From positions 165,884-229,883 of the forward strand of contig CAVWKW010000001.1 of NCBI GenBank assembly GCA_963755705.1: DNA of 64,000 bases, given 5' to 3'. Positions 1,100 to 17,918 of this stretch are shown piece after piece. Positions within the stretch are counted from its first letter, which is position 1. Each line of letters opens with the position of its first letter. This stretch comes from an uncultured delta proteobacterium. Its GTDB lineage: Bacteria > Desulfobacterota > Binatia > Binatales > Binataceae. Position numbers and translations under genes: made by a program. The notes beneath the pieces were generated by a model. The model ran no database searches and was not told the DNA's origin. It saw nothing but the letters and a program-made list of their open reading frames with translations.

Positions 1100-2160
1100 T
1101 GGCAAGCTCTATTGTCGCTTCGCTCGCCCGGTAGGTCAACCCACGGAGCGAGCCATGAACGTCCTACCAATCGAAAAGCAAGTCCAAGTAATTTCCGCTC
1201 TGACCGAAGGCTGTTCGATCCGCTCGACTGAGCGCCTGACTGACGTAAACCGCAACACGATCATGAGCCTGAGCCTTCGCGTCGGCGATGGCTGTGAACA
1301 CTTGCATGACGGCATGATGCGCGATCTGCAAGTGAACCAGATCGAGCTTGATGAACAGTGGGACTTCATCCAGAAAAAGCAGAAGCGCGTGCAGACTGGC
1401 GATCCTAGCGAGTTTGGCGACGTGTGGTTGTTCGTCGCGCTCGCGGCCACACAGAAGGCCGTCCTGAGCTATCTGATTGGGAAGCGCTCGACCGCGAACA
1501 CCCATGCGCTCGCGCGCGATCTGCGCGCCCGGATCGTGAATCGCCCACAGATCACGTCAGACGGATACGCGCCATATGTGGGCGCGGTTGAATCCGCGTT
1601 CGGTTGGGACGTGGACTACGCGATGCTCACGAAAGAGTACGTCGGCGATTCCAATCTGCCCGATGCGGCGCATCGCTACTCGCCCGGTCACGTCGCGGGA
1701 ATCGAAAAGACCGTGATAAGAGGACGCCCAAACGAGGATTTGATCAGCACGTCTTACGTCGAACGCTTCAATCTTTCGAGCCGGATGCAGATGCGCCGGT
1801 TCACGCGGTTGAGCAACGGATTTTCAAAGAAGCTCGAAAGCCATCGCGCGGCAGTCGCGCTTTGGGTCAGCTTCTACAACCTGTGCCGCGTGCATGAAAC
1901 GATGCGCTGCACGCCCGCGATGGCGCTTGGCGTGAGCGATCACATCTGGACGATTGGAGAGCTTGTACAGGCTGCGCTTGCGCCGCAGAACGTACCGCCA
2001 TTGCCGCAGCCGACTCCGCAAACGACGCTGCGACCGGGATACAGGCCGCTCAGACTGATCATCGGACGTGGCGGTAAGGGGGCGAACAAACCCCGCTGAA
2101 AAGGGTTTGCCTCGCGTGTTGCAACAGGTAGTATGGAATTGGTACACACCTCCCAGCGGT
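1100..2160 (+). mobile_element. IS1595/IS1-like insertion sequence (approximate bounds; terminal repeats not resolved)
   Basis: Single transposase ORF. Flanked by a phage-like gene and a small HicB-like ORF, next to housekeeping genes. Confidence 0.45.
1155..2099 (+). CDS. IS1/IS1595-family DDE transposase
   Basis: The C-terminal segment VERFNLSSRMQMRRFTRLSNGFSKKLESHRAAVALWVSFYNLCRVHETM matches the IS1 InsB / IS1595 signature (ERxNLxxRxxxxRLxRKxxxFSKSxExH...YN). N-terminal HTH-like region. One 314-aa ORF, typical for this IS family. Confidence 0.8.
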   Translation: MNVLPIEKQVQVISALTEGCSIRSTERLTDVNRNTIMSLSLRVGDGCEHLHDGMMRDLQVNQIELDEQWDFIQKKQKRVQTGDPSEFGDVWLFVALAATQKAVLSYLIGKRSTANTHALARDLRARIVNRPQITSDGYAPYVGAVESAFGWDVDYAMLTKEYVGDSNLPDAAHRYSPGHVAGIEKTVIRGRPNEDLISTSYVERFNLSSRMQMRRFTRLSNGFSKKLESHRAAVALWVSFYNLCRVHETMRCTPAMALGVSDHIWTIGELVQAALAPQNVPPLPQPTPQTTLRPGYRPLRLIIGRGGKGANKPR

Positions 2161-2193
2161 TCCGCGCTGGTATTAGCCGAGGGAGGATGCCAG

Positions 2194-2514
2194 ATGGAAG
2201 CTCACGAACGCCTCAAAATCCTTCTATTCACTGAAGGCTCAACCTGGATCGCGCAGTGCTTGCAGATTGATATTACTGCGCAGGCCCATTCGCATACGAA
2301 GGCTCTTGACCGTCTCTCGATTCTCTTTTGGGCACAGCACTATCTTGATCAACAGGCGAATCGGCTGCCGTTCTCAGCAATCCAAAAAGCGCCAAAGCGC
2401 TACTGGGATATGTTCAAACAAGGCACCGAAGTTACAATTCATCTGGACCTGCCACCGATTCCAACGGACGACGTAATTCAAGAAGCGGACGTAAAACTGG
2501 CGACGGCGGCATAG
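2194..2514 (+). CDS. Hypothetical protein, HicB-like (antitoxin-fold) small protein
   Basis: GGAGG RBS before ATG at 2194. The segment KILLFTEGSTWIAQCLQIDITAQAHS resembles the HicB N-terminal fold. Weak. Confidence 0.3.
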   Translation: MEAHERLKILLFTEGSTWIAQCLQIDITAQAHSHTKALDRLSILFWAQHYLDQQANRLPFSAIQKAPKRYWDMFKQGTEVTIHLDLPPIPTDDVIQEADVKLATAA

Positions 2515-2888
2515 CCGACCGCCAGTGAACGCGCCCGCTCCGCTCTACCCGACGTTTGCGCAATTCCGGCAAATTCTCATCGACAGATTTCGTTGCACGG
2601 TAGATCCGCCGATTCCTAATCTTGTTTACAGTCCGACGACGATCACTACGTTCAGGCGGAATGTAGGCAATGCGGACTGTGATTGGACGGCGTACATGGA
2701 CGACGATGAAACTATCACGCGGGAAATAGCGCTTGCCGCCTGCCGACACTTGCGCATTTATCCGGGCTATCTGAATTTCCTGCCCAATCCGCCAGTTCCT
2801 TGACTGTCTTAATTTCCCGCCCCGAGTGGCTTAATTCAGACAGTACCCCGGGCTCTTGAATCGGCCATCGGCGACTCGAGGGTTGCTC

Positions 2889-3422
2889 CTATCCGCGCTT
2901 AACGTCGCTTGCTGATCGCCCGATCGCATCGCTGATGTATTCGAACGTCTCGTCGAGTTCCATCCAATGCGAGATTCTGAGGCGACTGCCCTCTTCGAGA
3001 TCCTTGTAATGGTTGAAGAAGTGGCTGATCTGTTCATGCAGAATTGGCGGAAGATCGGACAGCGTCTGAACGGCAATGTAGTAAGGGTTTAATCTGTCCA
3101 CGGGAACCGCGATGATCTTCTGATCGCCGTCTTCCATCGCAAGGCCGCCGATTGGCCGGCATCGAATGACCGCGAGCGGGATGATGGGGACTTGTGAAAC
3201 AACCAGCACGTCACATGGATCCCCGTCCCGACACAGGGTGTGCGGAATGAGTCCGTAGTTGGCAGGATAGGACATGGGAGTATGCAGAAAGCGGTTAACG
3301 AAGAGGCAACCCGAGGCCGGATCGAACTCGTATTTGATCGGCGCTCCGCCCTGAGGAATCTCAATTATGACATTGACCTCGGACGGAGGATTGTCTCCCG
3401 CTGAAATCTTTCTGATATCCAT
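2889..3422 (-). CDS. ppa: Inorganic pyrophosphatase (family I)
   Basis: NVIIEIPQGGAPIKYEFDPASGCLFVNRFLHTPMSYPANYGLIPHTL...DGDPCDVLVV is a canonical Ppa signature. 177 aa. Confidence 0.95.
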   Translation of the reverse strand: MDIRKISAGDNPPSEVNVIIEIPQGGAPIKYEFDPASGCLFVNRFLHTPMSYPANYGLIPHTLCRDGDPCDVLVVSQVPIIPLAVIRCRPIGGLAMEDGDQKIIAVPVDRLNPYYIAVQTLSDLPPILHEQISHFFNHYKDLEEGSRLRISHWMELDETFEYISDAIGRSASDVKRG

Positions 3423-3502
3423 TTTTAAGTCCTCTCAACGTTAGGCCGGCATGATTCCACTGCACGAGATCGAACACTCAGAGGTCGCCGGACCAATGAC
3501 AT

Positions 3503-3533
3503 AAAAAAACTCCTGCGGCGCGTACCGCAGGAG
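3503..3533 (-). terminator. Rho-independent terminator (minus strand) after the eno-hypothetical genes
   Basis: Hairpin CTCCTGCGG-cgcgta-CCGCAGGAG preceded on + by AAAAAAA, which is a T-run on the minus strand. Confidence 0.6.
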
Positions 3534-3627
3534 TCATCGGCCGCTCGCTGAGAGCGGCAATTTTGGTGGACTCCACCACCTTCGAGATCAACCTAGCAGA
3601 GCGATCGGTTCCCCCGCCAGCTTTGAT

Positions 3628-3963
3628 TTACTCCAAAAGATCGGGGAAACGGACGTGGCGAAATGCGATCGCGAAGTCGTAAATGATGTCCGGCATAGTC
3701 ACCGACATCAGGAGAGTATCGGCGAAGGGAACTCGCCAGACCTTGGCAGCGGCTGACGCGTACCAGGGGTAGCAAAAGACGACGCGACGCTCCTCCGGCA
3801 AGATCAAGGCGCCTAATGCCTTTGCTATTGGACACTCGGCATTGGCCGAGTGTATCGAGCCGCGTGGAAGGACCGTCAATGCAGGTTCACGGACCTCGCT
3901 TCTAACGGCGTTGATCAGTTGTAGCGCATTTGAGGCAAGTTGTGACGCGAATACTGCGTCCAC
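3628..3963 (-). CDS. Hypothetical protein (111 aa) co-oriented between eno and ppa
   Basis: Intact ORF with appropriate spacing. No recognisable motif. Confidence 0.4.
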   Translation of the reverse strand: MDAVFASQLASNALQLINAVRSEVREPALTVLPRGSIHSANAECPIAKALGALILPEERRVVFCYPWYASAAAKVWRVPFADTLLMSVTMPDIIYDFAIAFRHVRFPDLLE

Positions 3964-4084
3964 GGAGGACCCCGCCCTGCAGGAGTCATTGGCGTGCCGA
4001 CCAGCAGCAGCGTTTCAGCGGACTCCACCGCGTTCCCGCGCATCGTCATGCGCGGGCGAATTTGCCATTTCCCGGCGCGGCAGC

Positions 4085-5386
<1,302 letters not shown>

Positions 5387-5431
5387 TCATAAGACGAGGA
5401 GAATGCAAGCGTGCCTGTGCGAGAAAGATCT

Positions 5432-5460
5432 TGACTAGCGCGCTCGTCAGTTGTCTTATG
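5432..5460 (+). promoter_or_regulatory. Candidate sigma70-type promoter for riboswitch 1 (TTGACT-17-TCTTAT)
   Basis: TTGACT at 5432-5437. Weak -10. Positioned about 10 nt upstream of the riboswitch start. Confidence 0.3.
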
Positions 5461-5469
5461 GTACTCGCG

Positions 5470-5560
5470 AACGGTGATGGGGTTCCACCGACAACCGCTC
5501 CCGCTTGAGTGAGCTGATGACCCCTACTGATGTTGAACATGGTAGGGGCTTTTCTTTTGA
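5470..5560 (+). promoter_or_regulatory. Fluoride riboswitch (crcB RNA motif) with terminator-type expression platform
   Basis: GGTGATGGGGTTCCACCGACAACCGCTCCCGCTTGAGTGAGCTGATGACCCCTACTG aligns with the T. petrophila fluoride aptamer GGGCGAUGAGGCCCGCCCAAACUGCCCUGAAAAGGGCUGAUGGCCUCUACUG. Shared elements are GAUGG, AACCGC and CUGAUG..CCUAC. The 3' CCCCTAC is re-used in the hairpin CCCCTAC-N14-GTAGGGG followed by CTTTTCTTTT. Confidence 0.85.
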
Positions 5561-5685
5561 AAGGGCTCTGCCGCAAGAGACGGAGTCCTTTGTGACCGTT
5601 CATATTCCGAACATGACAGCCTTCTGAGAGAACGCTTCGGCGCGGGTGTGCCTGCGACTCAATCCGGTTGGGAGGGCAATGATCT

Positions 5686-6990
5686 ATGTTCACAGGCAGA
5701 GGTAAGCAGCTGACTCTCTTCGTGACCGAAACCGATCACTATCGCCATCAATCGTTGTACATGGCGATTATCGAGATGCTCCGACGCGAGGGATGCAGCG
5801 GCGCGACCGCCATCCGCGGGATCGCCGGGTTTGGGGCATCCAGCCTGATACATACTGCCGCAATTCTGAGGCTGTCATTGGATCAGCCGTTGATGATTAC
5901 TGTTGTGGACCGGGCCGAGCGAATCGAGCGAGTTCTGCAGCCGCTGCGCGAAATGGCCCCCGCCGCCTTGATCACCATTCTGGACGTGGAAGTTGTTCAA
6001 TCCGGGGCGCCCTTTAAGGAGGGTCTGCCCGACGTGAAGGTCGTCGAGGTAATGCGTCGCGAAGTTGCGACGGTGCATCCCGACAGTCCCGTTACAGAGG
6101 TCGTTGAGTTGCTTTTACAGAAGGATTTTACCGCCGTACCAGTCGTGGATGACGAGGGAAAGGTCGTCGGCATGGTCAGCGACAGCGATCTACTGACGCG
6201 CGGCGGCATGAACGTGACGATCAGTCTTAAGAAAGCGACCGATCTGGACTTCGTACGCGGGATTCATGAATCGCTGGAGAATCCGGCACGCAAAGTTTCA
6301 GAAGTCATGACACGCGAAGTAGTAACCGTCGATCCCGAAATGATTCTTGGCCGGGCCGCGCGAGTGATGGTGGAAAAGCACCTGAAGCGACTGCCGGTAG
6401 TCGACGACGCCGGCAAGCTCGTCGGAATCCTGGGCCGGCTCGATATTTTGAATACAATCGCCGCCGTTCATCTGCCCGAATGGCACCCGGAAGCCCGGAG
6501 CATCGGCGCACAAGCCACAGTTGGCGAGGTGATGACGCGTGAGGTTCCAGTCTTACACGAATCCGCAACCGTGGAAGAAATTTTTGAGCTGCTGGTCTCG
6601 TCCTCTCACAAACGGGTGGTCGTAGTCAACGCGAAAAGGCATGTGGTTGGAATCGTCGCTGATTCAGACCTGATATCGAAGGTGAGCCGTGAACATTGGC
6701 CGGGGCTGATGGAACTCCTGGTCTCGAAAGTCCCGATCGAAAGAATCAGCGGCGTCGCTCGAAAGCACGTCCAGCAACTGCGCGCGCGTTCAGCGAAAGA
6801 GCTGATGACGCGAGGCGTGATCACGGTCCGGGAGAAAATGCCCGTCGCCAGCGCTCTCGCGCTTTCAGCGGAAAAACGTGTAAAGCGCCTCCCCGTTGTG
6901 GACGCCGAAAATGAACTGGTCGGGATCGTCGGACGCACCGAAATGATGAGAGCGCTTCTGGCCGGCGGCGCGCCGACGAAAGGTTCGTAG
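5686..6990 (+). CDS. DUF190 (PII-like) N-terminal domain fused to four CBS domains; fluoride-riboswitch-associated protein
   Basis: N-terminal ~100 aa (LTLFVTETDHYRHQSLYMAIIEMLRREGCSGATAIRGIAGFG) is a DUF190-type domain, which commonly neighbours crcB. It is followed by repeated CBS units (VxEVMTREVxTV...). Immediately upstream of crcB. Confidence 0.8.
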   Translation: MFTGRGKQLTLFVTETDHYRHQSLYMAIIEMLRREGCSGATAIRGIAGFGASSLIHTAAILRLSLDQPLMITVVDRAERIERVLQPLREMAPAALITILDVEVVQSGAPFKEGLPDVKVVEVMRREVATVHPDSPVTEVVELLLQKDFTAVPVVDDEGKVVGMVSDSDLLTRGGMNVTISLKKATDLDFVRGIHESLENPARKVSEVMTREVVTVDPEMILGRAARVMVEKHLKRLPVVDDAGKLVGILGRLDILNTIAAVHLPEWHPEARSIGAQATVGEVMTREVPVLHESATVEEIFELLVSSSHKRVVVVNAKRHVVGIVADSDLISKVSREHWPGLMELLVSKVPIERISGVARKHVQQLRARSAKELMTRGVITVREKMPVASALALSAEKRVKRLPVVDAENELVGIVGRTEMMRALLAGGAPTKGS

Positions 6991-6991
6991 C

Positions 6992-7366
6992 GTGGAGAGA
7001 GTCCTTCTGGTGGGGTCTGGCGGAGCTATCGGATCGGTCACTCGCTATCTGGTTGGTGGATGGTTCGCTGCTCGTTTCGGAAGCGCTTTTCCCTATGGAA
7101 CTTATGTAATCAACGGTACCGCGAGCTTCATCATCGGTTTTTTCCTGGCGCTCGCTCAGGTGCGCGCAGGGATCGGTCCCTACTGGCGATTGTTTGTGGC
7201 GACCGGTTTCGTCGGCGGTTATTCCACCTTTTCGACCTTCGAATACGAGTCAATGAGACTGCTCCAGGATGGCGAGATGCTATATGGGATGCTCTACCTG
7301 ATCGGAAGTATGGTGACGGGTCTCGGAGGTGCTCTCGCGGGCATTGCACTTGGCGGTTGGATTTGA
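6992..7366 (+). CDS. crcB: Fluoride ion channel CrcB/Fluc
   Basis: 124 aa, four TM helices. GSGGAIGSVTRYLV...YGTYVINGTASFIIGFF and GGYSTFSTF motifs are typical of CrcB. Directly downstream of the riboswitch-controlled gene. Confidence 0.85.
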   Translation: MERVLLVGSGGAIGSVTRYLVGGWFAARFGSAFPYGTYVINGTASFIIGFFLALAQVRAGIGPYWRLFVATGFVGGYSTFSTFEYESMRLLQDGEMLYGMLYLIGSMVTGLGGALAGIALGGWI

Positions 7367-7369
7367 GTT

Positions 7370-7398
7370 GACTGCAACGAATCCCTTGCTAGACTTCT
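7370..7398 (+). promoter_or_regulatory. Candidate promoter for riboswitch 2 (TTGACT-16-TAGACT)
   Basis: TTGACT at 7370-7375. TAGACT begins 16 nt downstream and lies about 7 nt before the riboswitch. Confidence 0.3.
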
Positions 7399-7407
7399 TC
7401 GAGCAGA

Positions 7408-7500
7408 GTTGGTGATGGGGTTCACCGCTACAACCGCCCTTTCCTGAGCTGGGCTGATGACCCCTACCGAGGTGTAAGCCGGTAGGGGTTGGCTTTCTCA
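7408..7500 (+). promoter_or_regulatory. Second fluoride riboswitch (crcB motif) with terminator-type expression platform
   Basis: GGTGATGGGGTTCACCGCTACAACCGCCCTTTCCTGAGCTGGGCTGATGACCCCTACC is a near-copy of the riboswitch-1 aptamer core. It is followed by the hairpin CCCCTACC-N12-GGTAGGGG and TTGGCTTTCTC. Confidence 0.85.
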
Positions 7501-7593
7501 GGTTCCCTACCTGGTCATTCGAGATCTCTCGCAAATCGGCGCCGCCTCGCGCCGAGGGACGAGACTTAACGCCGCATGGAACGAGCGTAGCGG

Positions 7594-8547
7594 ATGATGG
7601 CGCGTTCGATCGGGTTCAACCTGCTTCAAGTGCTGTTCGTTGTCGCACTGGCCCCGCTGGTCTCGGGCGTGTTGTCGCGGCTTAAGGAGATCGTTCAATC
7701 GCGGCGCGGTCCCAGCGTTCTTCAGCCCTATCGCGACCTACGAAAGCTGTTCAACAAAGACGAAGTTGTGTCCGAGTATGCTTCCTGGGTTTTTCGGGTG
7801 ACTCCTTACGTTGTTTTTGTTGCGCCGATCTTCGTAACCACGCTGATTCCGGTGCTCACCAGCTATCCGCTCTTTTTCGCTTTCATGGGCGACATGCTGG
7901 GAGCCGGTTTCGTGCTGGCGCTAGGCGGTTTCTTTGCCACGCTTGCGGCGGTTGATACTGCCAATCCCTACGGCCCGATGGGCGCCAGTCGAACCCGGAT
8001 GGTTGGCTTCCTGGCGGAACCCGTTTTCATGATAGTTTTTTTTACAGTCTCATTCGTGGCCGGCTCGACAATCCCTTACGTCGTTCAGCAGCACTGGGTG
8101 ACGCCGTTTTCGAATTTTCTTGCACCTTCGCACGTGCTGTTGGTGATCGCGTTCATCATGCTCATCATCGCCGAGGCTGGCCGGATTCCGGTGGACAATC
8201 CGACTGGCCATTTCGAACTCGCGATGATCGACGAGTCGAAGAGTCTCGAGTACTCGGGCACCGGTATGGCGCTGATGAAATGGGGCGGGCAGATGAAGCT
8301 GCTGGTGCTGATGTGCATCCTGCTCAACGTATTGGTAACGCCATGGGGACTTGCCATCGGCCAGAACACTGCCGAGGTCCTGCTGGCGGCACCGCTGGTG
8401 CTCTTCAAAGTAGCGATTTTTATACTGGTGGTGGTAGTGATCGAATCCTCACTCTCGAAATTGCGGCTCTTTCGCGTCAGTGAATTTCTGGGCGCGGCCT
8501 TCGTAACCTCGGTGGTAGCAATGATCACCGGGCTACTGAGCTTTTAG
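7594..8547 (+). CDS. Ehr/Hyf-type complex membrane subunit, NuoH/HycD-like (EhrB-like)
   Basis: 317 aa polytopic. LQPYRDLRKLFNKDEV corresponds to the NuoH QPxADxxKLxxKE signature. Confidence 0.8.
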   Translation: MMARSIGFNLLQVLFVVALAPLVSGVLSRLKEIVQSRRGPSVLQPYRDLRKLFNKDEVVSEYASWVFRVTPYVVFVAPIFVTTLIPVLTSYPLFFAFMGDMLGAGFVLALGGFFATLAAVDTANPYGPMGASRTRMVGFLAEPVFMIVFFTVSFVAGSTIPYVVQQHWVTPFSNFLAPSHVLLVIAFIMLIIAEAGRIPVDNPTGHFELAMIDESKSLEYSGTGMALMKWGGQMKLLVLMCILLNVLVTPWGLAIGQNTAEVLLAAPLVLFKVAIFILVVVVIESSLSKLRLFRVSEFLGAAFVTSVVAMITGLLSF

Positions 8548-8559
8548 CCAAAGACTCCA

Positions 8560-9240
8560 ATGGCGAATTACTACGCATTCATGAGCTCGCTGAATGGCCT
8601 GGCCGCGGGACTGTTCCTGATGAGTTCGTTCGGGCTCGCGGCGACGCGCCAGATGCAGGGATGCCAGCGATTCTATATTACTCAGTCTTTGTGCCTGGTG
8701 GTGTCGGCGCTGTTGCTCGGCCTCGGTTTGCACGCACCCGACCTGTTGGCGGTCGCCGCGCTTGACGTGGTGGTAAAGCCGATTGTAATTCCACGGCTGC
8801 TCCGACGCATGGTGCCTGAAGCCATTTTCAGAAGACGCGAGATCGATCAGGTATTGAATATTCCCAGCTCGCTGCTGATCGCGCTCGCGTTGACGCTGCT
8901 GGCCTATTTTCTTAGTGGATATCTGCCACCGGCGGCCGGCAGTTTGGCAAGAATCAACCTTCCTATTGGCCTCGCGGGGATATTCATAGGCATTTACACG
9001 CTCACGGTTCGGCGCGAGGCGGTGCCTCAACTGATTGGCATCTTTGGCATCGAGAATGGCGCCTTGCTTTGTGGCTTCGCGATTGCGCCGACGCTGCCAC
9101 TGGTAATCGAGATGGTCTTCCCGTTCGATATGCTGATCATCGCGCTGGTTATCGGAATCCTCACTCGAATGACGCATGAACGGGTCGGAACGACCGAGGT
9201 GGGTGGCTTCAGGACTCTGCGAGAAGGTTCCGGGAAATGA
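8560..9240 (+). CDS. Ehr/Hyf-type small membrane subunit, HyfE-like (EhrC-like)
   Basis: 226-aa hydrophobic protein in the position and of the size of HyfE. No catalytic motifs expected. Confidence 0.6.
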   Translation: MANYYAFMSSLNGLAAGLFLMSSFGLAATRQMQGCQRFYITQSLCLVVSALLLGLGLHAPDLLAVAALDVVVKPIVIPRLLRRMVPEAIFRRREIDQVLNIPSSLLIALALTLLAYFLSGYLPPAAGSLARINLPIGLAGIFIGIYTLTVRREAVPQLIGIFGIENGALLCGFAIAPTLPLVIEMVFPFDMLIIALVIGILTRMTHERVGTTEVGGFRTLREGSGK

Positions 9241-10685
9241 TCCTCTTCGTGATTCTCGCGCTTCCGCTGATTGCCGCGTCAATATCGGCAATCCCGCTCG
9301 GTCGCCGCGTCGCTCCTGCGGTTACGCTTGCGTCGTGTGTGGCAGTACTGGAGTTGACGGTCGCGGCAGCGCTGCGCGTCGTCGCGGGAGAATCGGTGGT
9401 TGCGATACGTAACTGGATCGCCATTGACGGACTAAGCACGTTGGTATTGTTGCTGGTCGCGACGGTGGGAAGTACCGCGGCGCTCTTTTCGTGGGGCTAC
9501 ATCGCTCGGGAAAAGAATTCACGCCATCTGCGCCGCTATTATGCCAATTACAATTTGTTTGTGTTCGCGATGCTCTCGGTGCCCATGCTTATCGAGCCGA
9601 ACCTGGTGTGGACCGGAGTGGAGTTGACCACGATTCTTTCCGTTTACCTGGTCGCATTCGAAAATACTGGCGAAGCTCTGGAAGCCGCGTGGAAGTACTC
9701 AGTGCTCACGATTATGGGGGGAGCGATAGCTCTGCTCGGATTTCTGGCCCTGTATGCCGCGACGCGGGGCAGGTACCCGGGAGTGCCTTACACCTGGCAT
9801 ACGCTGATCGTGCTTGCGCCCAAAGTTTCGCCGGGTGTGCTTGAGACCGCGTTCGTCTTGATTCTCGTTGGGTTTGGCGCCAAGGCCGGTTTGGTTCCCC
9901 TGCACACGTGGCTGCCCGACGCGCACAGCCAGGCGCCGAGCCCGATATGCGCGCTGCTCTCAGGGATCAAGACCACGGTGATTTTATACGTGATATTGCG
10001 TCTCATTCCGGTGTTGAACGCTTCTGGAAAGATCGATATCGACGCTTGGGCGATGGTCGTAGGTTTGTTCTCGGTAGGTATTGCCGCATTTCTGATTATT
10101 CAGGTGACTGACTATAAGCGGCTGTTCGCATTCTCCACGGTCGAGCATATGGGAATCATTTTGGCCGCCGCTGGGATTGGTGGTGCCGCCGGTCATTATG
10201 GCGCCGTATATCAAATACTAAACCATGCGCTGACCAAATCGTTTTGTTTTTTTGCGGCCGGCGCGACCTTACTCGCAGTGGACACGCGGCAAATCGCGGA
10301 AGTGCGGGGATTGATACGGACCTCGCCCCCCGCGGGTGTGGCTCTGCTGTTCGGCGGAATCGCGATCGCCGGTGCACCACCGCTGGCGGTCTTTTTGAGT
10401 GAGTTCTCGATCCTGCGCTCAGGAATCGCTGCGCAACACTATCTTGCAACCGGTCTGCTCGCTGGATTCGTAATAGTTGCATTCTTCGGGATTCTTTATC
10501 ACCTCAACCGGATGGTTTTCGGGAAACCGCAATCGACCACCGAAAATATAGTACCGGTAAAACTGCCGGTGAGCTGTATCCTGACGCTAATTCTGGCCGC
10601 GATACCGATCATCATTCTCGGAGTCTATATGCCGCAGTCGCTGCATACTCTTCTTCGGATGGCTGCCGACGGCCTGACGAGGTGA
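9237..10685 (+). CDS. Ehr/Hyf-type antiporter-like subunit, NuoN/NuoM/HyfF-like (EhrD-like)
   Basis: 482 aa, about 14 TM. Mrp/NuoLMN-family pattern (WTGVELTTILSVYLVAFE..., GFGAKAGLVPLHTWLPDAHSQAP). Confidence 0.8.
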   Translation: MILFVILALPLIAASISAIPLGRRVAPAVTLASCVAVLELTVAAALRVVAGESVVAIRNWIAIDGLSTLVLLLVATVGSTAALFSWGYIAREKNSRHLRRYYANYNLFVFAMLSVPMLIEPNLVWTGVELTTILSVYLVAFENTGEALEAAWKYSVLTIMGGAIALLGFLALYAATRGRYPGVPYTWHTLIVLAPKVSPGVLETAFVLILVGFGAKAGLVPLHTWLPDAHSQAPSPICALLSGIKTTVILYVILRLIPVLNASGKIDIDAWAMVVGLFSVGIAAFLIIQVTDYKRLFAFSTVEHMGIILAAAGIGGAAGHYGAVYQILNHALTKSFCFFAAGATLLAVDTRQIAEVRGLIRTSPPAGVALLFGGIAIAGAPPLAVFLSEFSILRSGIAAQHYLATGLLAGFVIVAFFGILYHLNRMVFGKPQSTTENIVPVKLPVSCILTLILAAIPIIILGVYMPQSLHTLLRMAADGLTR

Positions 10686-10688
10686 TCG

Positions 10689-12278
10689 ATGCCCCCGGGA
10701 CTCCGACAAGTACTCGAAGAGGCTACCGCGCGATGGAACAGCAACGTTCGCCCGAGCCCCGAAGACGGCGCCGAATCGGCTTATCGGTTGGAGTGCGAGC
10801 CTCGTGCACTGCCGGAGATTTGCGACTGGCTATTCTCTGAGATGAATTACAGCTTCGGCGGCCTTGTCGTCGAGCAGCTAGCGCAATGGGAGCTGCGCTA
10901 TTTATTTTACGGGGGCTCGGACGCAGGCTGGCTGCACGTTCTTACTCATCTATCCCCTTCCGAAGATCGAGTACCCAGCATCAGCAGGCTGGTGCATGCC
11001 GCCGACTGGCACGAACGCGAGGTCGAGGATCTGTTCGGGCTGTTCTTCGAGGGGCACCCTCGCCTTGGTGACTTCGTGCTTCACGACGACGTTTGGCATG
11101 AGGGCATCGCTCCGATGCGTAAAAGCTTCGTTGCAAGCGAGCCCGTACTTCATCGTGAGCCTGACCTGACGTGGAAGCCCCGCCAGATCGTCGAGGAAGC
11201 GGGCGCTTTTTCGATGCCAGTAGGGCCCATCTATTCGGCGGCCACTGGGCCGGTGCACTTTCAGCTTGAAACCGTGGGTGAGGACGTGATTCGCGCGCAG
11301 CCGCGTCTCTTCTACGCCTATCGAGGGCTGGAAAAAATCGCGGAGGGACGTCAGGCCGAAGACGTGCTGCTGATCGCGGAGCGGATCAGCGGAACTTCGG
11401 CATTCGCTCATTCACTCGCGGTTTGTCAGTCCGTCGAGCACGTCAGCCAAATCGAAGTGCCGCCGCGAGGCCGCGCGCTGAGAATATTTGCCGCCGAGCT
11501 CGAACGCCTGCGGCATCATGCGTCGGTGATCGAAGGTATCTGTGAATCCACCGCCCTTGCTGTGGCTGCTGCGCAGGCCGCGATCCTCGAAGAAGACTTG
11601 CTCCGGATTTCCGGCGCTCTTACCGGCCATCGATATCTGTTCGGCCTGAGCACCTTCGGCGGCGTGACGATAGACCTTGATGGCGCAGCCTGCCGGGGAG
11701 CGGCGGCGCAGGTGCGAGATATAGGTGAAAAGCTCTCAACTCTGGAGCGGATGCTTAGCACCTCGAGCAGCTTCCTCGACCGCCTCGAGCAGGTTGGTGA
11801 TGTCTCGGCGAACGATGCCCGCGAGTTTGGGCTGGTCGGACCTATCGCTCGCGCCTCCGGCGTTTCGCGGGATCTGAGGAAGGCGCAGCCATATTCCGGC
11901 TATGAGGCGGTTGAGTTTGAAGTTCCACGTGAAACCGAGGGGGATGGCTTCGCGCGGCTGCGCCTGTTCTTTCGGGAGGCTACGCAATCAGTGCGGATTA
12001 TTTCGAAGATCGCCGAACGGATTCCAGATGGCCGGTTTCGCGCGCCGGAAGTCTGGTTGCGGCCCGGTGCCGCGCTGGGCTGGGTTGAAGCGCCACGCGG
12101 AGCCGCTCTGCATTGGCTTCGTTTGCGCGAGGACGGCGTGGTCGATCGATACCGAATTATCACGCCGTCGTTCGCTAACTGGCACGGGTTCAGGCTTGCG
12201 GCCGAAAGATTTGCGTTCCAGGACTTTCCAATAATCCTCGCGACGTTCGCGCTCTCAGTTCACGAGAACGATCGCTAG
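10689..12278 (+). CDS. Ehr-type large subunit (NuoC-NuoD/HycE-like fusion) lacking the [NiFe]-binding cysteines
   Basis: NuoD/HycE core (FSMPVGPIYSAATGPVHFQLETVGE). At the L1 motif position the sequence is ERISGTSAFAHS, i.e. RxCGxCxxxH with both Cys replaced by Ser. The C-terminus ...ALSVHENDR has no DPCxxCxxH motif and resembles the NuoD end. Confidence 0.8.
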   Translation: MPPGLRQVLEEATARWNSNVRPSPEDGAESAYRLECEPRALPEICDWLFSEMNYSFGGLVVEQLAQWELRYLFYGGSDAGWLHVLTHLSPSEDRVPSISRLVHAADWHEREVEDLFGLFFEGHPRLGDFVLHDDVWHEGIAPMRKSFVASEPVLHREPDLTWKPRQIVEEAGAFSMPVGPIYSAATGPVHFQLETVGEDVIRAQPRLFYAYRGLEKIAEGRQAEDVLLIAERISGTSAFAHSLAVCQSVEHVSQIEVPPRGRALRIFAAELERLRHHASVIEGICESTALAVAAAQAAILEEDLLRISGALTGHRYLFGLSTFGGVTIDLDGAACRGAAAQVRDIGEKLSTLERMLSTSSSFLDRLEQVGDVSANDAREFGLVGPIARASGVSRDLRKAQPYSGYEAVEFEVPRETEGDGFARLRLFFREATQSVRIISKIAERIPDGRFRAPEVWLRPGAALGWVEAPRGAALHWLRLREDGVVDRYRIITPSFANWHGFRLAAERFAFQDFPIILATFALSVHENDR

Positions 12279-12293
12279 ACGGCGGGAACAGCC

Positions 12294-13064
12294 ATGAGCC
12301 AATGGTTGATCAAGGGTCTCAGAACCGGCATCAAGAGCACGCCCTATCCGCGCGCCACGGAAACTGCGGCTGGAACGTCCCCAGGCCTGCCCGCCGCTAC
12401 CAGACTCGCCGCGGAGCAGGCGCAATCGGTGGTGGCTCGGTGTCCTACAGGTGCGCTTGAACTCGCGCCGGCTGGTGTGGACGTGAACGTGCGCCAGTGT
12501 ATCCACTGCATGCGGTGCGCGCGTGATACGGACAGACCGATGGATTGGGAACGCGGCTACGAGTGGGCGAGCGAAGTCTCGGCGGTTGATGACCGAACCC
12601 GGCACTTCGGTCCCGCGTTTGCTCGGTCGGTTCAGATTCTCGTGGTCGATACAGGCGACTGCGGTGCGTGCCTGAATGAAGTCCGACAGCTCAACAATCC
12701 CTACTACAACCTGCATCGCCTCGGATTCTTTCTCACTCCAACTCCGCGGCATGCGGACGTGTTGCTCGTAGTCGGAGCGCTGACCGAGCACATGCGCGCG
12801 CCCCTGCTCAAGGCTTACAACGCGATGCCTGGTCCAAAGCGCATCGTTGCCGTAGGCGCGTGCGCGTTATCGGGAGGAATTTTTGGCCGGAGCTTCATGT
12901 GCGCAGGCGGAGTAAGCGAACTGCTCCCGGTCGATGTCGAGGTGCCGGGTAATCCGCCGCCGCCACTAGCTATCCTGCACGGACTATTGGTTGCGGTGGG
13001 CCGTAAAACCTCTGCCAGTTTGCATCGCGCGGTAGGTGGCTCCACGGGGAAAGCGTCGGGATGA
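12294..13064 (+). CDS. Ehr-type small subunit (NuoB/HycG-like) with degenerate N-terminal ferredoxin-like region
   Basis: DTGDCGACLNE (CxxC..E), VGACALSGG (GxCxxxGG) and VPGNPPPP (where CPGCPP/VPGCPP is expected; Cys replaced by Asn). The N-terminus has a single CIHCMRC (CxxCxxC) plus CPTG remnant. Confidence 0.75.
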   Translation: MSQWLIKGLRTGIKSTPYPRATETAAGTSPGLPAATRLAAEQAQSVVARCPTGALELAPAGVDVNVRQCIHCMRCARDTDRPMDWERGYEWASEVSAVDDRTRHFGPAFARSVQILVVDTGDCGACLNEVRQLNNPYYNLHRLGFFLTPTPRHADVLLVVGALTEHMRAPLLKAYNAMPGPKRIVAVGACALSGGIFGRSFMCAGGVSELLPVDVEVPGNPPPPLAILHGLLVAVGRKTSASLHRAVGGSTGKASG

Positions 13065-15211
13065 CCGCGATGGGCTTGCTGCTGATCATCATCCTGGGGT
13101 TGTGCGTCGTCGGGATATTGTTGCCGCTGGCGGTTGATGAACGATTAACGCCGGCGATTGTGGGATGGCTCGGAGCGTGCGCGGCCGCCGTCTTACTCTG
13201 CTTCAGCGGAGCCTCTCTGTTTGCCGACGTGCCGTTTCACTCGACGTTGTGGAGCATTCCCTCGCTGGCGACGCTCACGCTCTCGCTCGATCGGCTGTCG
13301 GCGCTGTTTCTTTTTGTCTCGGGCTTGATCCTCCTTCCCGGATCGATTTTCGCCGCCGGCAATCTCCGTCGATACGCGGGCCGGTACAGTCTCGGGGCCT
13401 TTAGCGTTCCATATTTCGCGCTCTTCGCAACGCTGGTGTTGATTCCTTTATCGGCCGACGCGGTCTCCTTCCTGATGCTGTGGGAGTCGATGTCGATCCT
13501 GATCTATCTGCTGGTGAACTACGAAGACGAAGATGAGGAGCATATCCGGTCGGGATTCCTGATGCTCGCGGTGGGCGAGGCCGGCACGCTCCTCATCGCG
13601 CTCGCGTTCATCGTGCTCGCCAAAAATGGCTCGCTCGAGTTCGCCGCGATGAAGGATGGCTCAGGTACGTTGACCGAGTACACGCGATGGGCCGTTTTTC
13701 TGCTCGCGTTTTTTGGCTTCGGCGTGAAGGCCGGTCTCATCCCGGTGAACTTTTGGCTCCCGCAGGCTTATGCCGCTGCGCCGGACGCCTTCGTTCCGGT
13801 GCTGGCTGGAGCGACCTTGAACCTCGGAATTTACGGAATCGTCAGAGTCAATGGCGATCTGCTGCCGGTTGCGATGATCGGCCCCGGCATCGTCGCGCTG
13901 ATAATAGGCAGTGTTACCGCATTGCTCGGGATACTTTACGCGACAACCCAGAACGATCTTAAAACTATGCTCGCGCACAGCTCGATCGAGAACGCGGGCA
14001 TCATCACGGCGGCTCTTGGCGCGGGGTTCATCTTCGTGGCGTCGAATCGCCCATCGCTCGCAGCGATTGCGTTCGCGGCGGCCTTCTACCACACAGCGAA
14101 TCACTCGATCTATAAGGCCCTGCTGTTCTTCGCGACCGGTGCGGTTGATTCAAATACCGGGACGCGAAGCATCGACCGGCTCGGAGGCTTGATAAAGGCG
14201 ATGCCTCTCACCGCATTGTTCTTTCTGGTTGGCGCGCTGTCGATCGCGGCGCTGCCGCCGTTCAACGGATTCGTCAGCGAATGGCTCACGCTGCAGACGA
14301 TGCTGCAAAGCGCGGGGCTCGCTTCGACTGGCGTGAAAATCGTCTTTGCGCTTTGTGGCGCGATCCTCGCCCTGACCGCAGCGCTCGCGGTGACCTGCTT
14401 CGTGAAGGCGTTTGCGATGAGCTTCCTCGGAATGCCGCGCTCCGAATCTGCCGCGCAGAGTCGGCCTGCGCGAGCCTCTGCGACCCTTCCGATGGCGTTC
14501 CTCGCGGTGCTCTGCCTCGTGCTCGGAGTGACTCCGACCTATGTGATTCCGGTGCTCGACGGAGCGATAGCGCCGATCGCGGGGCAAGCTCGCGCTGCCG
14601 ACGCACTGGTGCCGCCATTCTTCGCCGGCAACGTTCATCACGGCGAGTTGCCCGCATCCTTCGTCGCGGACTTTCACGCGATCGGCGCGCAAGTTGGACA
14701 GAGTATCTTGCCGGGACGCGGGCTGGTCGTGATGCATCGCGGCGGCAAAGCCAATCCGATCGTGTTCGCAATGTCCACTTCGTACATGGCGGTGGTCTTA
14801 GCGTTGATGCTGCTGATGACTTACGTTGTTTTTCGAGTAGTGATTGCTCGAAGCCGCGCCATCGAGCGGCGCGCGGTCTGGGATGGAGGTATCCGGAGGT
14901 TGCTCCCGGAAATGACCTACACTGGTACGGGATTCTCGAATCCGGTGCGAGTTATCTTTGAGGCGATCTTCAGGCCTACCACCGTGGAGGACACCAGAGA
15001 GACGGTAGGAAAGCATTTCCGGGCGGCGATTCGCCGCACGCGCGGAGAAAATCACGTACTCGACCGTCTGATTCTCAATCCGATCGCGGATGCCGCCTTG
15101 TGGGTATCAAAAGGTTTCGCGCGGATGCATCACGGCATTCTCAACGCGTACGTTCTCTACGGGCTCGGCGCGCTAATCCTGGCGCTTTTGATCGCGAGAT
15201 TTTCCTCATGA
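13061..15211 (+). CDS. Ehr/Hyf-type antiporter-like subunit, NuoL/HyfB-like (EhrA-like)
   Basis: 716 aa, many TM. NuoL/MrpA-like motifs (GVKAGLIPVNFWLPQAYAAAPDAFVPVLAGATL). Start overlaps the small-subunit stop. Confidence 0.8.
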   Translation: MTAMGLLLIIILGLCVVGILLPLAVDERLTPAIVGWLGACAAAVLLCFSGASLFADVPFHSTLWSIPSLATLTLSLDRLSALFLFVSGLILLPGSIFAAGNLRRYAGRYSLGAFSVPYFALFATLVLIPLSADAVSFLMLWESMSILIYLLVNYEDEDEEHIRSGFLMLAVGEAGTLLIALAFIVLAKNGSLEFAAMKDGSGTLTEYTRWAVFLLAFFGFGVKAGLIPVNFWLPQAYAAAPDAFVPVLAGATLNLGIYGIVRVNGDLLPVAMIGPGIVALIIGSVTALLGILYATTQNDLKTMLAHSSIENAGIITAALGAGFIFVASNRPSLAAIAFAAAFYHTANHSIYKALLFFATGAVDSNTGTRSIDRLGGLIKAMPLTALFFLVGALSIAALPPFNGFVSEWLTLQTMLQSAGLASTGVKIVFALCGAILALTAALAVTCFVKAFAMSFLGMPRSESAAQSRPARASATLPMAFLAVLCLVLGVTPTYVIPVLDGAIAPIAGQARAADALVPPFFAGNVHHGELPASFVADFHAIGAQVGQSILPGRGLVVMHRGGKANPIVFAMSTSYMAVVLALMLLMTYVVFRVVIARSRAIERRAVWDGGIRRLLPEMTYTGTGFSNPVRVIFEAIFRPTTVEDTRETVGKHFRAAIRRTRGENHVLDRLILNPIADAALWVSKGFARMHHGILNAYVLYGLGALILALLIARFSS

Positions 15212-15384
15212 AGCTTGACCGGCGTTAAACGGAGTCTTAATTTTGAACTGTAGGCGGTGGAGTCCGCCGATATCTGCCATCCGGCCAATGACTCCTGCAA
15301 GCGGGTAGAGACCCGTGGCAGGAGTTTCCACTCCAGAAGCTGGGTCTCGAGACCGCTCCGACGATTGCTGATCGGAGGCCGCAA

Positions 15385-16212
15385 GTGCTCGAGCGCCTGA
15401 CAAAAAATTTCCGGGAACTACTCAAGAAGTTCGAGGGCGCGTCGTGCCCGCTGTGTTCTGTACTAAAATGGCGGGAACAACAGCGGCTTGAGCGGCTGCG
15501 CGCAAGCGGCGTTTCGACGCGTGTCCTGTGCGGCCCGCATCTCGAAATGGCTCTGGCCGCGCTTGCTATCCGGACGGCAAGGGCGCGACTGACTCGTAGC
15601 GCGATCGAATCCGTCCTCGCCGGCCGTCCCGATTGCGAAGTGTGCTCATGGCTGTGCCAAATCGAGCTTCGGCTAGTGCGAGCGATTCGTCGTTTGGACG
15701 GCGGGATGCGCTTCCAGAAGGCTCTCGAATCGGCGCCGCTGTTCTGCCGCAAGCATGCGAGGGCGATCGGTGAACAAAATGCAGCGGTTAATTTTGCACA
15801 CGTCCAGAAGGCGAGGCTGCTTCGCTTGCGTAACGCGCTGGCTCAAGCAGAGTTGCGCAACAGCGCGGAGTTGGAATCGCTGATATCCAAGACGCTTGCG
15901 TACTTGGCTGCCCCAGTCGAGCAAGAGCCGGCATCAGAAGTCCTCGATTCCTCCGATAGCACGGAGAGTGACGCCGCGGAATTCGGGCGATGGGAGGATG
16001 CGCGTCAGCTCAAACATCTATCTGACCTCGAGAGCGAAGCGGCAAGCCTGCGCTATCGCAACGCAACGCTCGCCGAGGAAAACCGCAGACTCAAGCTCGC
16101 GCATGCTGCGGGCGAGGCTTTGAGGCGCGACCTCGAACACGATCGAGAGCAGTTTATTGCCGCGGCAAAAGCACAGGATCCAAATTCCGTAAAATCTTCA
16201 AACCGGAATTGA
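15385..16212 (+). CDS. Hypothetical protein with two C2CH zinc-ribbon-like modules and a C-terminal coiled-coil/acidic tail (GTG start)
   Basis: GGAGG RBS 6 nt before GTG at 15385. Modules CPLC-x24-LCGPH and CEVC-x33-FCRKH. C-terminal heptad-like ESEAASLRYRNATLAEENRRLKLAHAAGEALRRDLE. Confidence 0.55.
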   Translation: MLERLTKNFRELLKKFEGASCPLCSVLKWREQQRLERLRASGVSTRVLCGPHLEMALAALAIRTARARLTRSAIESVLAGRPDCEVCSWLCQIELRLVRAIRRLDGGMRFQKALESAPLFCRKHARAIGEQNAAVNFAHVQKARLLRLRNALAQAELRNSAELESLISKTLAYLAAPVEQEPASEVLDSSDSTESDAAEFGRWEDARQLKHLSDLESEAASLRYRNATLAEENRRLKLAHAAGEALRRDLEHDREQFIAAAKAQDPNSVKSSNRN

Positions 16213-16926
16213 ATGGAGCGAATCATCCCCATGCGAATCTGCATCATCTCTGACCTGCATGCGAACCTCGAGGCTCTTGCAGCGTTGCCGAGCGACTATG
16301 ACGAGTTATGGGTATTGGGCGACCTGGTCGATTATGGTCCCGATCCGGCTGAAACGATCGAATTCGTCCGATCTCACGCGTTGACCGTGATTCGAGGCAA
16401 CCATGACAACGCGGTCGGATTCGGAACGGACTGCGGATGCTCTCCCCGATTCACCGCGATGGCGGAGGCAACACGCAAGTACACTACCTCAGTCTTGAGT
16501 GCGAGCGACAAGCAGTTTCTCCGCGACCTCCCGACGTGCGCGTGCCGCCAACTAGACGGTCGAGTATTTTTTCTCTGCCACGCGACCCCGTCGGATCTTT
16601 TGTACGAATACCGTCCGCCAGACTCTCCTCTGTGGGCCCGAGATGAGGAGTCCAGTTCAGGAGCGGACGTTCTGCTGGCGGGCCATACGCACCTGCCGTT
16701 CGTACGCGTCTTCGGCGAGCGCGTCGTAGCTAATCCGGGAAGTCTCGGACAATCGAAAGTTGGAGGTGCGCGTGCCCGCTATGCGGTCTGGCAGGATGAC
16801 CATATCGAGCTAAAGGACTACGAATATCCCGTCAATAAAACTATACACAAAATTCTGACACTGCCATTGCCCGAGGAAGTAAAGCACGATCTCGTCTGTG
16901 TGCTTCGCACGGGGACGGCGCCGTGA
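16213..16926 (+). CDS. Calcineurin-like metallophosphoesterase (YfcE/MJ0936/Vps29-fold family)
   Basis: Motifs ISDLHAN, VLGDLVDYGPDP, RGNHDN and GHTH, in canonical order. Confidence 0.8.
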   Translation: MERIIPMRICIISDLHANLEALAALPSDYDELWVLGDLVDYGPDPAETIEFVRSHALTVIRGNHDNAVGFGTDCGCSPRFTAMAEATRKYTTSVLSASDKQFLRDLPTCACRQLDGRVFFLCHATPSDLLYEYRPPDSPLWARDEESSSGADVLLAGHTHLPFVRVFGERVVANPGSLGQSKVGGARARYAVWQDDHIELKDYEYPVNKTIHKILTLPLPEEVKHDLVCVLRTGTAP

Positions 16927-17918
16927 GTACTAATAGTCATCGAGACGCCGCGCCGGCGCCGATTGCGATCACGGCGGACTCCGCAAAACTCACTGCTCTG
17001 GGACGTCACCTGCGATCTCTGCACGACGGGGACGGCGCGGTGATTGAGGCAATCGGCATCGGTGCTCCAGCGGTTCCGATCCTGCGGGCACTTCTGTCTG
17101 AGCGAGACTTCACGGGGATTTTCGAACCGCGGATGCGGGCCGTTCAGGCGCTGGCCGCGCTCAGAGCCACGAGCGAATTGAAAGAGTACGTTCGGGGGTG
17201 GCAATCGGCCTCAGACCCCGTCGAGCGATTCGGAGACGAGGCAGTGCTGGGGACGGCCGCCAGATTTTTGGGCGCGACTAAAGACGAAGACGCTTATCAG
17301 ATCTTGATCGCGGTGGCCCGAAAGCATCCGGTGCCTGGCGTCATCGAAGCATTGGGAAGCTGTGGCCGCAAGGAATCGATTCCGATCGTAATCAAAGCCC
17401 TTGCCGACGACGTCAGCCGTAGCGCCGCGGAACAGGCGTTAAGAATCCTCGGAGAGGTCGGCGCACCTGCACTCATCGAAGCCGCCCTGCGACCCGTAGC
17501 GAACTTTTGGGGCAGTGAAATTCCATCCAGTGTGCGGCGGCGCCGCAGCGCACTGATGCTGCTGTTCGAATTTGGCGTCACCCGCGACATTTGGGACCGC
17601 GTCCGCGGGTTGGCAGCGGATTCAGACGACGAGATCGCGGTCCACGCGTGCGCGATTGGCCTGACCGCCGGGACCTATCCCGACCAGCGCGATTGCGCGC
17701 GCCGAATGGTGGCACTGCTGCGTCAGGTGGCGTGGCCGCTTCATCGTGAAGTCGAGGACTGTCTGATAGTTCATTTCGCAATCGCGCGCGAGTTCGTCGA
17801 ACAGGCGATCAAAAGCCCGATGGACCTGATCGCGAATGACTTCGCGCGTGCCCGCTTCAAACGATCCCTGCGCCGGATCGCGGCGCGAGCATCAACCAGC
17901 CAGGCGCCCAGGAGTTGA
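16923..17918 (+). CDS. HEAT/PBS-lyase-type alpha-solenoid repeat protein
   Basis: Repeated ~30-aa units (AVxALGxIGxPAVPxLxxLLxD...) typical of HEAT-like repeats. Start overlaps the upstream stop. Confidence 0.7.
   Translation: MSTNSHRDAAPAPIAITADSAKLTALGRHLRSLHDGDGAVIEAIGIGAPAVPILRALLSERDFTGIFEPRMRAVQALAALRATSELKEYVRGWQSASDPVERFGDEAVLGTAARFLGATKDEDAYQILIAVARKHPVPGVIEALGSCGRKESIPIVIKALADDVSRSAAEQALRILGEVGAPALIEAALRPVANFWGSEIPSSVRRRRSALMLLFEFGVTRDIWDRVRGLAADSDDEIAVHACAIGLTAGTYPDQRDCARRMVALLRQVAWPLHREVEDCLIVHFAIAREFVEQAIKSPMDLIANDFARARFKRSLRRIAARASTSQAPRS

Follow-up and report, generated by a model that had tools for sequence, protein, structure and literature searches.

Fluoride riboswitches of the crcB motif (Rfam RF01734, Fluoride) are already well known as a class; their terminators overlap the motif, so that the ligand is expected to raise expression, and the genes associated with them include formate hydrogen lyase and mutS (Weinberg et al. 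2010, PMC2864571). According to a 2024 review, the genes most often found with the motif are those for exporters, Na+/H+ antiporters, pyrophosphatase, enolase and formate hydrogen lyase (PMC11139923). Here we describe a 64-kb window (the whole stretch of DNA analysed) from an uncultured Binataceae soil bacterium (Candidatus Binataceae), in which a first-pass annotation had proposed two tandem fluoride riboswitches. These two leaders, called switches 1 and 2 below, are very probably independent crcB-motif riboswitches of the fluoride-ON transcriptional type, lying within a larger fluoride-resistance island. The locus is a multi-switch island with a layout conserved in Binataceae. Its switches, ordinary as riboswitches, extend the class into the uncultured phylum Binatota. 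The genes behind its leaders fit the published fluoride set, with CrcB, DUF190, an energy-converting hydrogenase-related complex (Ehr, putatively the 'FHL' or formate hydrogenlyase of that set) and pyrophosphatase downstream of aptamers, and enolase nearby.

The Bacillus cereus crcB riboswitch belongs to RF01734, has a pseudoknot strand in common with its terminator, is read through in fluoride and stands before crcB (PMC8752731, PMC2864571); the window leaders resemble it in these respects and would, by analogy, behave alike. They differ in the pseudoknot, which is GGGGU/ACCCC (a compensatory variant) in the window and GGAGU/ACUCC in the consensus, and in their context, a high-GC Binataceae genome with a DUF190-CBS fusion as the gene nearest to the switch. 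For the island as a whole an experimentally tested parallel is the operon of Enterobacter cloacae FRM (PMC5533749). The GI3 cluster of that strain (ppaC-uspA-eno-gpmA-crcB-orf5249) likewise combines a fluoride riboswitch with pyrophosphatase, enolase and CrcB, and likewise lies beside mobile-element genes (PMC5533749). There, however, one riboswitch serves six genes, whereas the window has four to five on both strands; moreover, the window enolase has no aptamer in front of it, and the island also holds an Ehr-type complex and a dynamin/phosphoesterase operon. With true tandem riboswitches (glycine, thiamine pyrophosphate and mixed two-aptamer leaders) the window shares two serial aptamers on the same strand, both of which a promoter-1 transcript can meet. 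Unlike these, it has separate leaders, each with its own promoter and terminator, and no cooperative or Boolean architecture. The term 'tandem' of the first-pass annotation is thus not apt in its technical sense, the aptamers being 1.87 kb apart with two open reading frames (ORFs) and a conserved promoter between them.

Switches 1 and 2

The full window was scanned with Rfam cmscan at gathering thresholds (34 bits for RF01734), and four matches exceeded the cut-off: the two flagged aptamers and two more, at 3521-3589 on the minus strand and 15244-15304 on the plus strand. A permissive Rfam scan of positions 1-22000 gave no further aptamer beyond this set. The features of the two flagged units are the following, folds being minimum free energy (MFE) folds.

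5431-5459, plus strand: promoter 1, -35 box TTGACT (5431-5436), 17-nt spacer, -10-like TCTTAT (5454-5459)
5464-5533, plus strand: fluoride aptamer 1, full-length RF01734 match (54.1 bits, E=3.3e-12; 81.4 bits with our own covariance model)
5473-5476 / 5486-5489, plus strand: P1 of aptamer 1, GGUG/CACC
5497-5500 / 5511-5514, plus strand: P2 of aptamer 1, GCUC/GAGC
5479-5483 / 5520-5524, plus strand: pseudoknot of aptamer 1, GGGGU/ACCCC
5521-5558, plus strand: terminator 1, a hairpin (5521-5548) with the pseudoknot 3' strand as its 5' arm, then a U-tract (MFE folds)
5686-6990, plus strand: DUF190 protein with four CBS domains, 434 aa, first gene of switch 1 (Pfam DUF190 7e-31, CBS 7e-58)
6992-7366, plus strand: CrcB/Fluc fluoride channel, 124 aa (Pfam CRCB 5e-26)
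7368-7395, plus strand: promoter 2, TTGACT (7368-7373), 16 nt, TAGACT (promoter scan), beginning 1 nt past the crcB stop
7402-7473, plus strand: fluoride aptamer 2, full-length RF01734 match (51.5 bits, E=2.3e-11; 78.1 bits with our own covariance model)
7411-7414 / 7423-7426, plus strand: P1 of aptamer 2
7436-7439 / 7451-7454, plus strand: P2 of aptamer 2
7417-7421 / 7460-7464, plus strand: pseudoknot of aptamer 2, GGGGU/ACCCC
7459-7499, plus strand: terminator 2, with a 13-bp hairpin (7459-7490) that overlaps the 3' strand of the pseudoknot (MFE folds)
7594-15211, plus strand: six-gene Ehr-type (hydrogenase-4-like) membrane complex (Pfam, NCBIfam)

Both aptamers lie where the first-pass annotation had placed them, far above threshold, and agree with every highly conserved RF01734 position at high posterior probability. 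They had also been called near-identical, which is too strong, as 56 of the 75 aligned columns (75%) are identical; within the conserved cores the two do not differ. When species-representative genomes were scanned with the DUF190-CBS protein, 59 related loci were found (cited by L number); almost all close relatives (67-96% identity) come from metagenome-assembled genomes (MAGs) under the names Candidatus Binataceae, Candidatus Binatus or 'delta proteobacterium', and a few carry other labels. A first aptamer regular expression and a strict descriptor missed known copies and were dropped, as was a relaxed descriptor (1 control match in 2 Mb) that missed aptamers with inserted stems (L062). Because of these failures on known copies a covariance model of our own was built from 30 clean type-A aptamers.

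The predicted pseudoknotted fold with its conserved positions is well supported by covariation among 43 distinct related aptamers. Over P1, P2 and the pseudoknot together 95.4% of the alignment cells are paired, against 34-59% in slid controls, and both sides of a pair have changed in 60 cells, a number reached in 0 of 500 shuffles. In P1 95.8% of cells are paired (UA 20 and CG 18 at one pair), in P2 90% (CG 24 and UA 10 at one pair) and in the pseudoknot 99%, where the variable pair is AU in 26, GC in 14 and GU in 2. A direct tally of this variable pair over 50 distinct sequences gives G-C 27, A-U 19 and G-U 4, with no mismatch.

The claim that each aptamer heads its own transcription unit, behind a TTGACT hexamer at the right distance, is borne out by the orthologues. 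At promoter 1 TTGACT is invariant and at the same distance in 18/18 orthologous leaders, the -10-like element (nnTnAT) is also kept and the flanks are variable; the promoter scan did not call this site, because the -10 has no A at position 2. Promoter 2 is the sole plus-strand sigma-70-like site called by the scan in 14 kb, and its TTGAC and TAnACT elements occur at fixed spacing in 13/13 orthologues with varying flanks. Switch 2 precedes the hydrogenase-like operon in every relative mapped, even in L031 (operon inverted) and L032 (no crcB unit before it), and switch 2 therefore belongs to this operon. In terminator 1 CCCCTACT (5521-5528) pairs with GGTAGGGG (5541-5548) around an inner ATGT/ACAT stem, followed by the tail TTTTCTTTT at 5550-5558; as RNA this reads CCCCUACU (5521-5528) and GGUAGGGG (5541-5548) with AUGU/ACAU inside, and then UUUUCUUUU (5550-5558). 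RNAalifold keeps the hairpin across 18 orthologues, and the inner stem shows a compensatory change, AUGU/ACAU in the window versus GUGU/ACAC in L001. In terminator 2 GACCCCTACC (7459-7468) pairs with the strand ending in GGTAGGGGT (to 7490), and the alignment of 11 orthologues retains 23 conserved pairs (RNAalifold), of which column pair 66/74 varies between CG, UG and UA. Of the earlier description of these terminators, as hairpins sharing the aptamer 3' strand and followed by a T-rich tract, the conserved hairpins stand for both switches, while the tract is present in switch 1 and weak in switch 2.

In the proposed mechanism each unit would consist of a sigma-70-type promoter (TTGACT -35), about 10 nt, the aptamer and an intrinsic-terminator hairpin, the aptamer being formed by P1, P2 and the 5-bp pseudoknot GGGGU/ACCCC, and the 5' arm of the terminator reusing the ACCCC(UAC) tail. 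When fluoride is lacking, the terminator arm (GUAGGGG / GGUAGGGG) would capture the tail and transcription would end ahead of the genes. When fluoride is bound as a Mg2+-F- cluster, the pseudoknot would keep the tail, the terminator would be blocked and RNA polymerase would read on, from switch 1 into the DUF190-CBS protein and the CrcB/Fluc channel, and from switch 2 into the six-gene Ehr-type membrane complex; read-through from unit 1 would receive a second check at switch 2. Family membership, the helices, the pseudoknot covariation, the conservation of hairpins and promoters and the gene content are observed directly. Fluoride binding and antitermination by switches 1 and 2 would follow the established behaviour of the family, and all elements of the fluoride-ON transcriptional design that had been suggested find computational support, the fluoride response itself by analogy.

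A number of observations weigh against such a design. The tail of terminator 2, TTGGCTTTCTC (RNA UUGGCUUUCUC), is weakly T-rich in the window, and neither terminator was called by the simple terminator scan (loops of at most 8 nt; at least 5 T in 8 for the tail), because their outer loops exceed the 8-nt limit; promoter 1 and both terminators were instead judged by conservation in orthologues. The whole-leader MFE z-scores are unremarkable (-1.9 for switch 1 and -0.8 for switch 2). Covariation within the two terminators is limited, because the orthologues are closely related and the aptamer leaves one of the two arms little freedom to vary. The weak tails, TTGGCTTTCTC after hairpin 2 and TTTCCACTCC after hairpin 4, neither of them called at 5 T in 8, would suit leaders that sense fluoride but, in switch 2 (and 4) at any rate, act through Rho-dependent termination or RNA stability. 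This is unlikely, given that switch-2 orthologues often have a clear U-tract (L027 TTTTTTCGTTTTT, also GGGGTTTTTTCGTTTTTC; L008 TTTTTCATTTT; L034 TTTTTCGTTTT) and that switch 4 of L001 has T6; masking of a ribosome-binding site is not available with start codons about 100 nt downstream.

Another arrangement would make switch 2 an operon-internal attenuator that re-checks promoter-1 transcripts, the TTGACT/TAGACT after crcB being no working promoter. The crcB stop lies 1 nt from this -35 box and the terminator scan found no terminator between the stop and promoter 2, so that unit-1 read-through transcripts would also reach switch 2; with none between crcB and aptamer 2 some read-through would be certain. 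The fixed spacing of the two promoter elements amid varying surroundings nevertheless speaks for a working promoter, as does its conservation in L031, whose inverted Ehr operon diverges from the crcB unit, and in L032, where no DUF190-CBS or crcB match lies ahead, and we regard a purely internal attenuator as quite improbable. That the switches are decayed or repurposed copies, either non-regulating or with a ligand other than fluoride, is very hard to credit. Decay is known in the lineage, where the switch-1 orthologue of L003 (9779-9848) and L030 (7251-7320) carries two pseudoknot-breaking substitutions, GAUGAGGUU / GUGAACCC, and falls under the Rfam threshold, yet scores 49 bits with our own model, and looks like a decaying copy. 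The window copies, however, have all highly conserved RF01734 positions, a fully complementary pseudoknot and a place before crcB, and no variant-specificity signature is visible in them. Independent fluoride-ON transcriptional switches remain the preferred reading.

Two further features of the switch 1 leader (window 5549-5595) recur in orthologues. One is a conserved GAAAGG immediately 3' of terminator 1, able to pair with the U-tract (CUUUUC). The other is a second conserved hairpin, GCUCUGCCG...CGGAG, which follows it within the 135 nt that lead up to the DUF190-CBS start codon.

The Ehr-type complex behind switch 2

The most interesting lead lies outside the claim of the first-pass annotation and concerns a clade of Ehr complexes without the NiFe cysteines, which nearly always lies behind a fluoride aptamer. 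Ehr complexes are energy-converting hydrogenase-related complexes without NiFe CxxC motifs, and their function is stated as unknown (PMC10284858, PMC4378227, PMC6349859). The operon behind switch 2 encodes six subunits homologous to HyfB/C/E/F and HycE/G of the Escherichia coli formate hydrogenlyase and hydrogenase 4.

7594-8547, plus strand: NuoH/HyfC-like subunit
8560-9240, plus strand: HyfE-like subunit
9237-10685, plus strand: HyfF-like subunit
10689-12278, plus strand: NuoC-D/HycE-like large subunit (best solved match E. coli FHL subunit 5, HycE, 7Z0S_E, E=2e-60)
12294-13064, plus strand: NuoB/HycG-like small subunit
13061-15211, plus strand: HyfB-like subunit

When the large subunit is aligned to HycE (7Z0S_E), RVCGICGFAH is replaced by RISGTSAFAH and the C-terminal DPCYSCTDR by ALSVHENDR, and all four NiFe ligand cysteines are consequently absent. 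The signatures of [NiFe] group 4 hydrogenases and formate hydrogenlyase, RxCGxCxxxH and DPCxxCxx(H/R), are thus not found in this subunit, and the operon combines the group-4-hydrogenase-like subunit set and antiporter-like subunits of Ehr complexes with the loss of NiFe-binding cysteines. The NuoB/HycG-like subunit keeps 3 of the 4 proximal-cluster cysteines (PGCPP has become PGNPP), the position of the fourth iron-sulphur cysteine differing between family members (N 40, C 11, Q 9, D 5, S 5, H 4, F 3). The small subunit also has an N-terminal CxxCxxC...CP ferredoxin-like segment. No formate dehydrogenase (FdhF), HycB/F or maturation genes were detected in the operon by Pfam and NCBIfam scans. 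As judged from these sequences, the complex is of the Ehr type and not a formate hydrogenlyase, the name it is given in databases and riboswitch papers, and should be unable to bind NiFe; it resembles published Ehr complexes in having no NiFe CxxC motifs (PMC10284858, PMC4378227), and is unlike the E. coli formate hydrogenlyase, which has FdhF, HycB/F, maturation genes and the four NiFe cysteines.

The family is a large one. A large database search gave 2573 homologues of the large subunit at E<=1e-20, many of them labelled 'formate hydrogenlyase subunit 5' by the Joint Genome Institute (JGI), and the C-terminal DPCxxC is absent from all of the best 120 of these 2573 and from the 78/78 metagenome copies tallied. 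A metagenome scan, limited to the closest relatives and including some duplicates, added 80 further loci, in 986 kb of which our covariance model found 100 aptamers. Where 3.7 kb or more of sequence precedes the large-subunit match, 45 of 48 loci have a same-strand aptamer 2.5-8.5 kb upstream of it, mostly at about 3.3-3.5 kb, corresponding to the operon leader. For three distant members (59-61% identity) the gene neighbourhood was inspected, and the orders are as follows.

L060: aptamer, enolase, 98-aa gene, Ehr; then a second aptamer and a dynamin-family gene
L062 (Verrucomicrobiae): aptamer, CrcB, DUF190, Ehr, enolase; then a second aptamer and two MutS-domain-V genes
L063: aptamer, DUF190, Ehr, Usp, enolase

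In L062 the pseudoknot of the aptamer at 14083-14155 is doubly compensated (GAAGU/ACUUC), and this aptamer carries an inserted hairpin beside P1; the one at 3941-4020 has an additional stem between P1 and P2.

Ehr complexes behind a fluoride aptamer are found in 45/48 metagenome loci, in Binataceae, in a Verrucomicrobiae MAG and in two other lineages. It is possible, if slightly short of probable, that the Ehr clade without NiFe cysteines, large, coherent and almost always gated by a fluoride riboswitch, serves specifically against fluoride stress rather than in hydrogen or formate metabolism. If so, Ehr could, for instance, be an ion-translocating module that sustains the membrane potential or pH gradient needed for Fluc export, or one that counters acidification driven by hydrogen fluoride. 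This would also provide a first physiological handle on the function-unknown Ehr family, with sodium fluoride as a simple inducer. In the riboswitch literature 'formate hydrogen lyase' has figured since 2010 as one of the genes most often under fluoride regulation, an association explained through formate metabolism. The present data connect this 'formate hydrogen lyase' with the 'Ehr' of bioenergetics, because the fluoride-linked complex is predicted to be incapable of NiFe binding and the clade nearly always stands behind a fluoride aptamer, and the 'FHL' class of the surveys is putatively the same clade. In the literature searched no publication joined fluoride, riboswitch, 'group 4' and hydrogenase, two joined fluoride, formate hydrogen lyase and riboswitch, and the Ehr papers made no link to fluoride.

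Further switches and the layout of the island

The two outputs proposed earlier, a CrcB/Fluc operon and a membrane complex, are both identified by Pfam; their number was set too low, the island having at least four and probably five fluoride switches, on both strands. Five outputs are gated: DUF190-CBS with CrcB, the six-gene hydrogenase-like complex, a pyrophosphatase, a 111-aa protein (by the probable fifth switch) and a phosphoesterase/HEAT/dynamin-like operon. The same sensor is thus used four or five times at a single locus, with separate gating of different defence modules. The aptamers are of two sequence types, with a G-C pair in the pseudoknot in switches 1 and 2 and the consensus A-U in switches 3, 4 and the fifth. 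The remaining features are these.

2889-3422, minus strand: inorganic pyrophosphatase, gated by aptamer 3 (Pfam Pyrophosphatase 6e-48)
3535-3508, minus strand: terminator of switch 3, 12 bp then T7 (top terminator-scan match, MFE z = -4.5)
3589-3521, minus strand: fluoride aptamer 3 (RF01734 39.0 bits)
3628-3963, minus strand: conserved 111-aa protein (orf111), downstream of the fifth aptamer
4041-3973, minus strand: probable fifth, divergent fluoride aptamer, GCGGUGGAGUCCGC...GCCAAUGACUCCUGC, between enolase and the 111-aa ORF
4085-5371, minus strand: enolase, divergent from switch 1 (Pfam Enolase_C 5e-115)
15216-15327, plus strand: switch 4, with a conserved -35 TTGACC (15216-15221) and the aptamer at 15244-15304 (RF01734 35.1 bits)
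15385-20380, plus strand: four-gene operon of switch 4 (Pfam and translation)
20427-21635: major facilitator superfamily (MFS) transporter, following the switch 4 operon

The terminator of switch 3 is the cleanest in the region. No TTGAC-type promoter lies upstream of this switch, where a conserved block, GCTGGC...CTGCTAGGTTGATCT, is found instead; a by-eye check of this block for a sigma-54 or extracytoplasmic function (ECF)-type promoter gave no convincing match. Switch 3 may act on transcripts arriving from enolase and orf111. The enolase leader has no aptamer of its own, none being found on the minus strand in 5372-5685 by Rfam, the permissive scan or our covariance model.

The element between enolase and orf111 is probably a fluoride aptamer. 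In the window it is sub-threshold (14.1 bits with Rfam, 12.9 bits with our own model); its orthologues score 30.2 bits (E=3.5e-6) in L005 (8307-8374, minus strand) and 22.9 bits in L028 (5410-5475, minus strand), it is kept at the same position in six loci, and its P2 is irregular yet covarying (GCUUA/UAAGC in L005). A hairpin can form between GACUCC (3987-3982) and GGGGUC (3973-3968), the latter containing a Shine-Dalgarno (SD)-like element set 4 nt (3967-3964) before the GUG at 3963, and the counterpart in L003 reads GACUCC-UGCAUC-GGAGUC-CGCC-AUG. This suggests a translational ON platform, in which the GACUCC/GGAGUC (GGGGUC) pairing would mask the SD-like element. The downstream protein, orf111, is found by tblastn at 58-92% identity in 6 syntenic loci; it has no Pfam, NCBIfam or PDB sequence match, and shows no similarity to the 98-aa gene that occupies the corresponding position in L060.

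Switch 4 folds into a hairpin, ACUCCUGC...GCAGGAGU, with a weak U-tract (tail TTTCCACTCC), which is a T6 tract in the L001 orthologue. Its operon encodes a Cys-rich 275-aa protein, a YfcE-like metallophosphoesterase, a HEAT-repeat protein and an 821-aa dynamin-family GTPase. The 275-aa protein, in which two CxxC...CxxH repeats are combined with a coiled-coil tail, gave no Pfam, NCBIfam or PDB sequence match.

The layout in relatives was determined with Rfam on seven loci, with a regular-expression and tblastn map, and with our covariance model. L001 is collinear with window positions 2867-16986 at 90.7% nucleotide identity, and related Candidatus Binataceae MAGs have 5-8 aptamers per about 20 kb, with six in L001, L005 and L028 and seven to eight in L003 and L030. 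The sixth aptamer of L001 (7059-7128, minus strand), located after the pyrophosphatase, controls a dynamin-family GTPase together with two MutS-domain-V proteins (2071-7000, minus strand). The L003 and L030 loci have extra divergent aptamers, those of L003 being at 7330-7402 (minus strand) and 7518-7587 (plus strand).

Synteny between the window and L001 ends at 2867, to the left of which lies an IS1-like transposase ORF (1155-2099). Neither the GC content, in which no clear island boundary is seen, nor a search for an attachment-site repeat, which found no second copy of either tRNA-Sec end in the window, marks the limits of an insertion. The segment 25061-31344 holds genes for a TrwB-like type IV coupling protein, a TrwC relaxase and a tyrosine integrase, which end 15 nt before a selenocysteine tRNA.

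31253-31344: tRNA-Sec (Rfam)

A TrwC relaxase also adjoins the fluoride/Ehr cluster in the unrelated locus L063.

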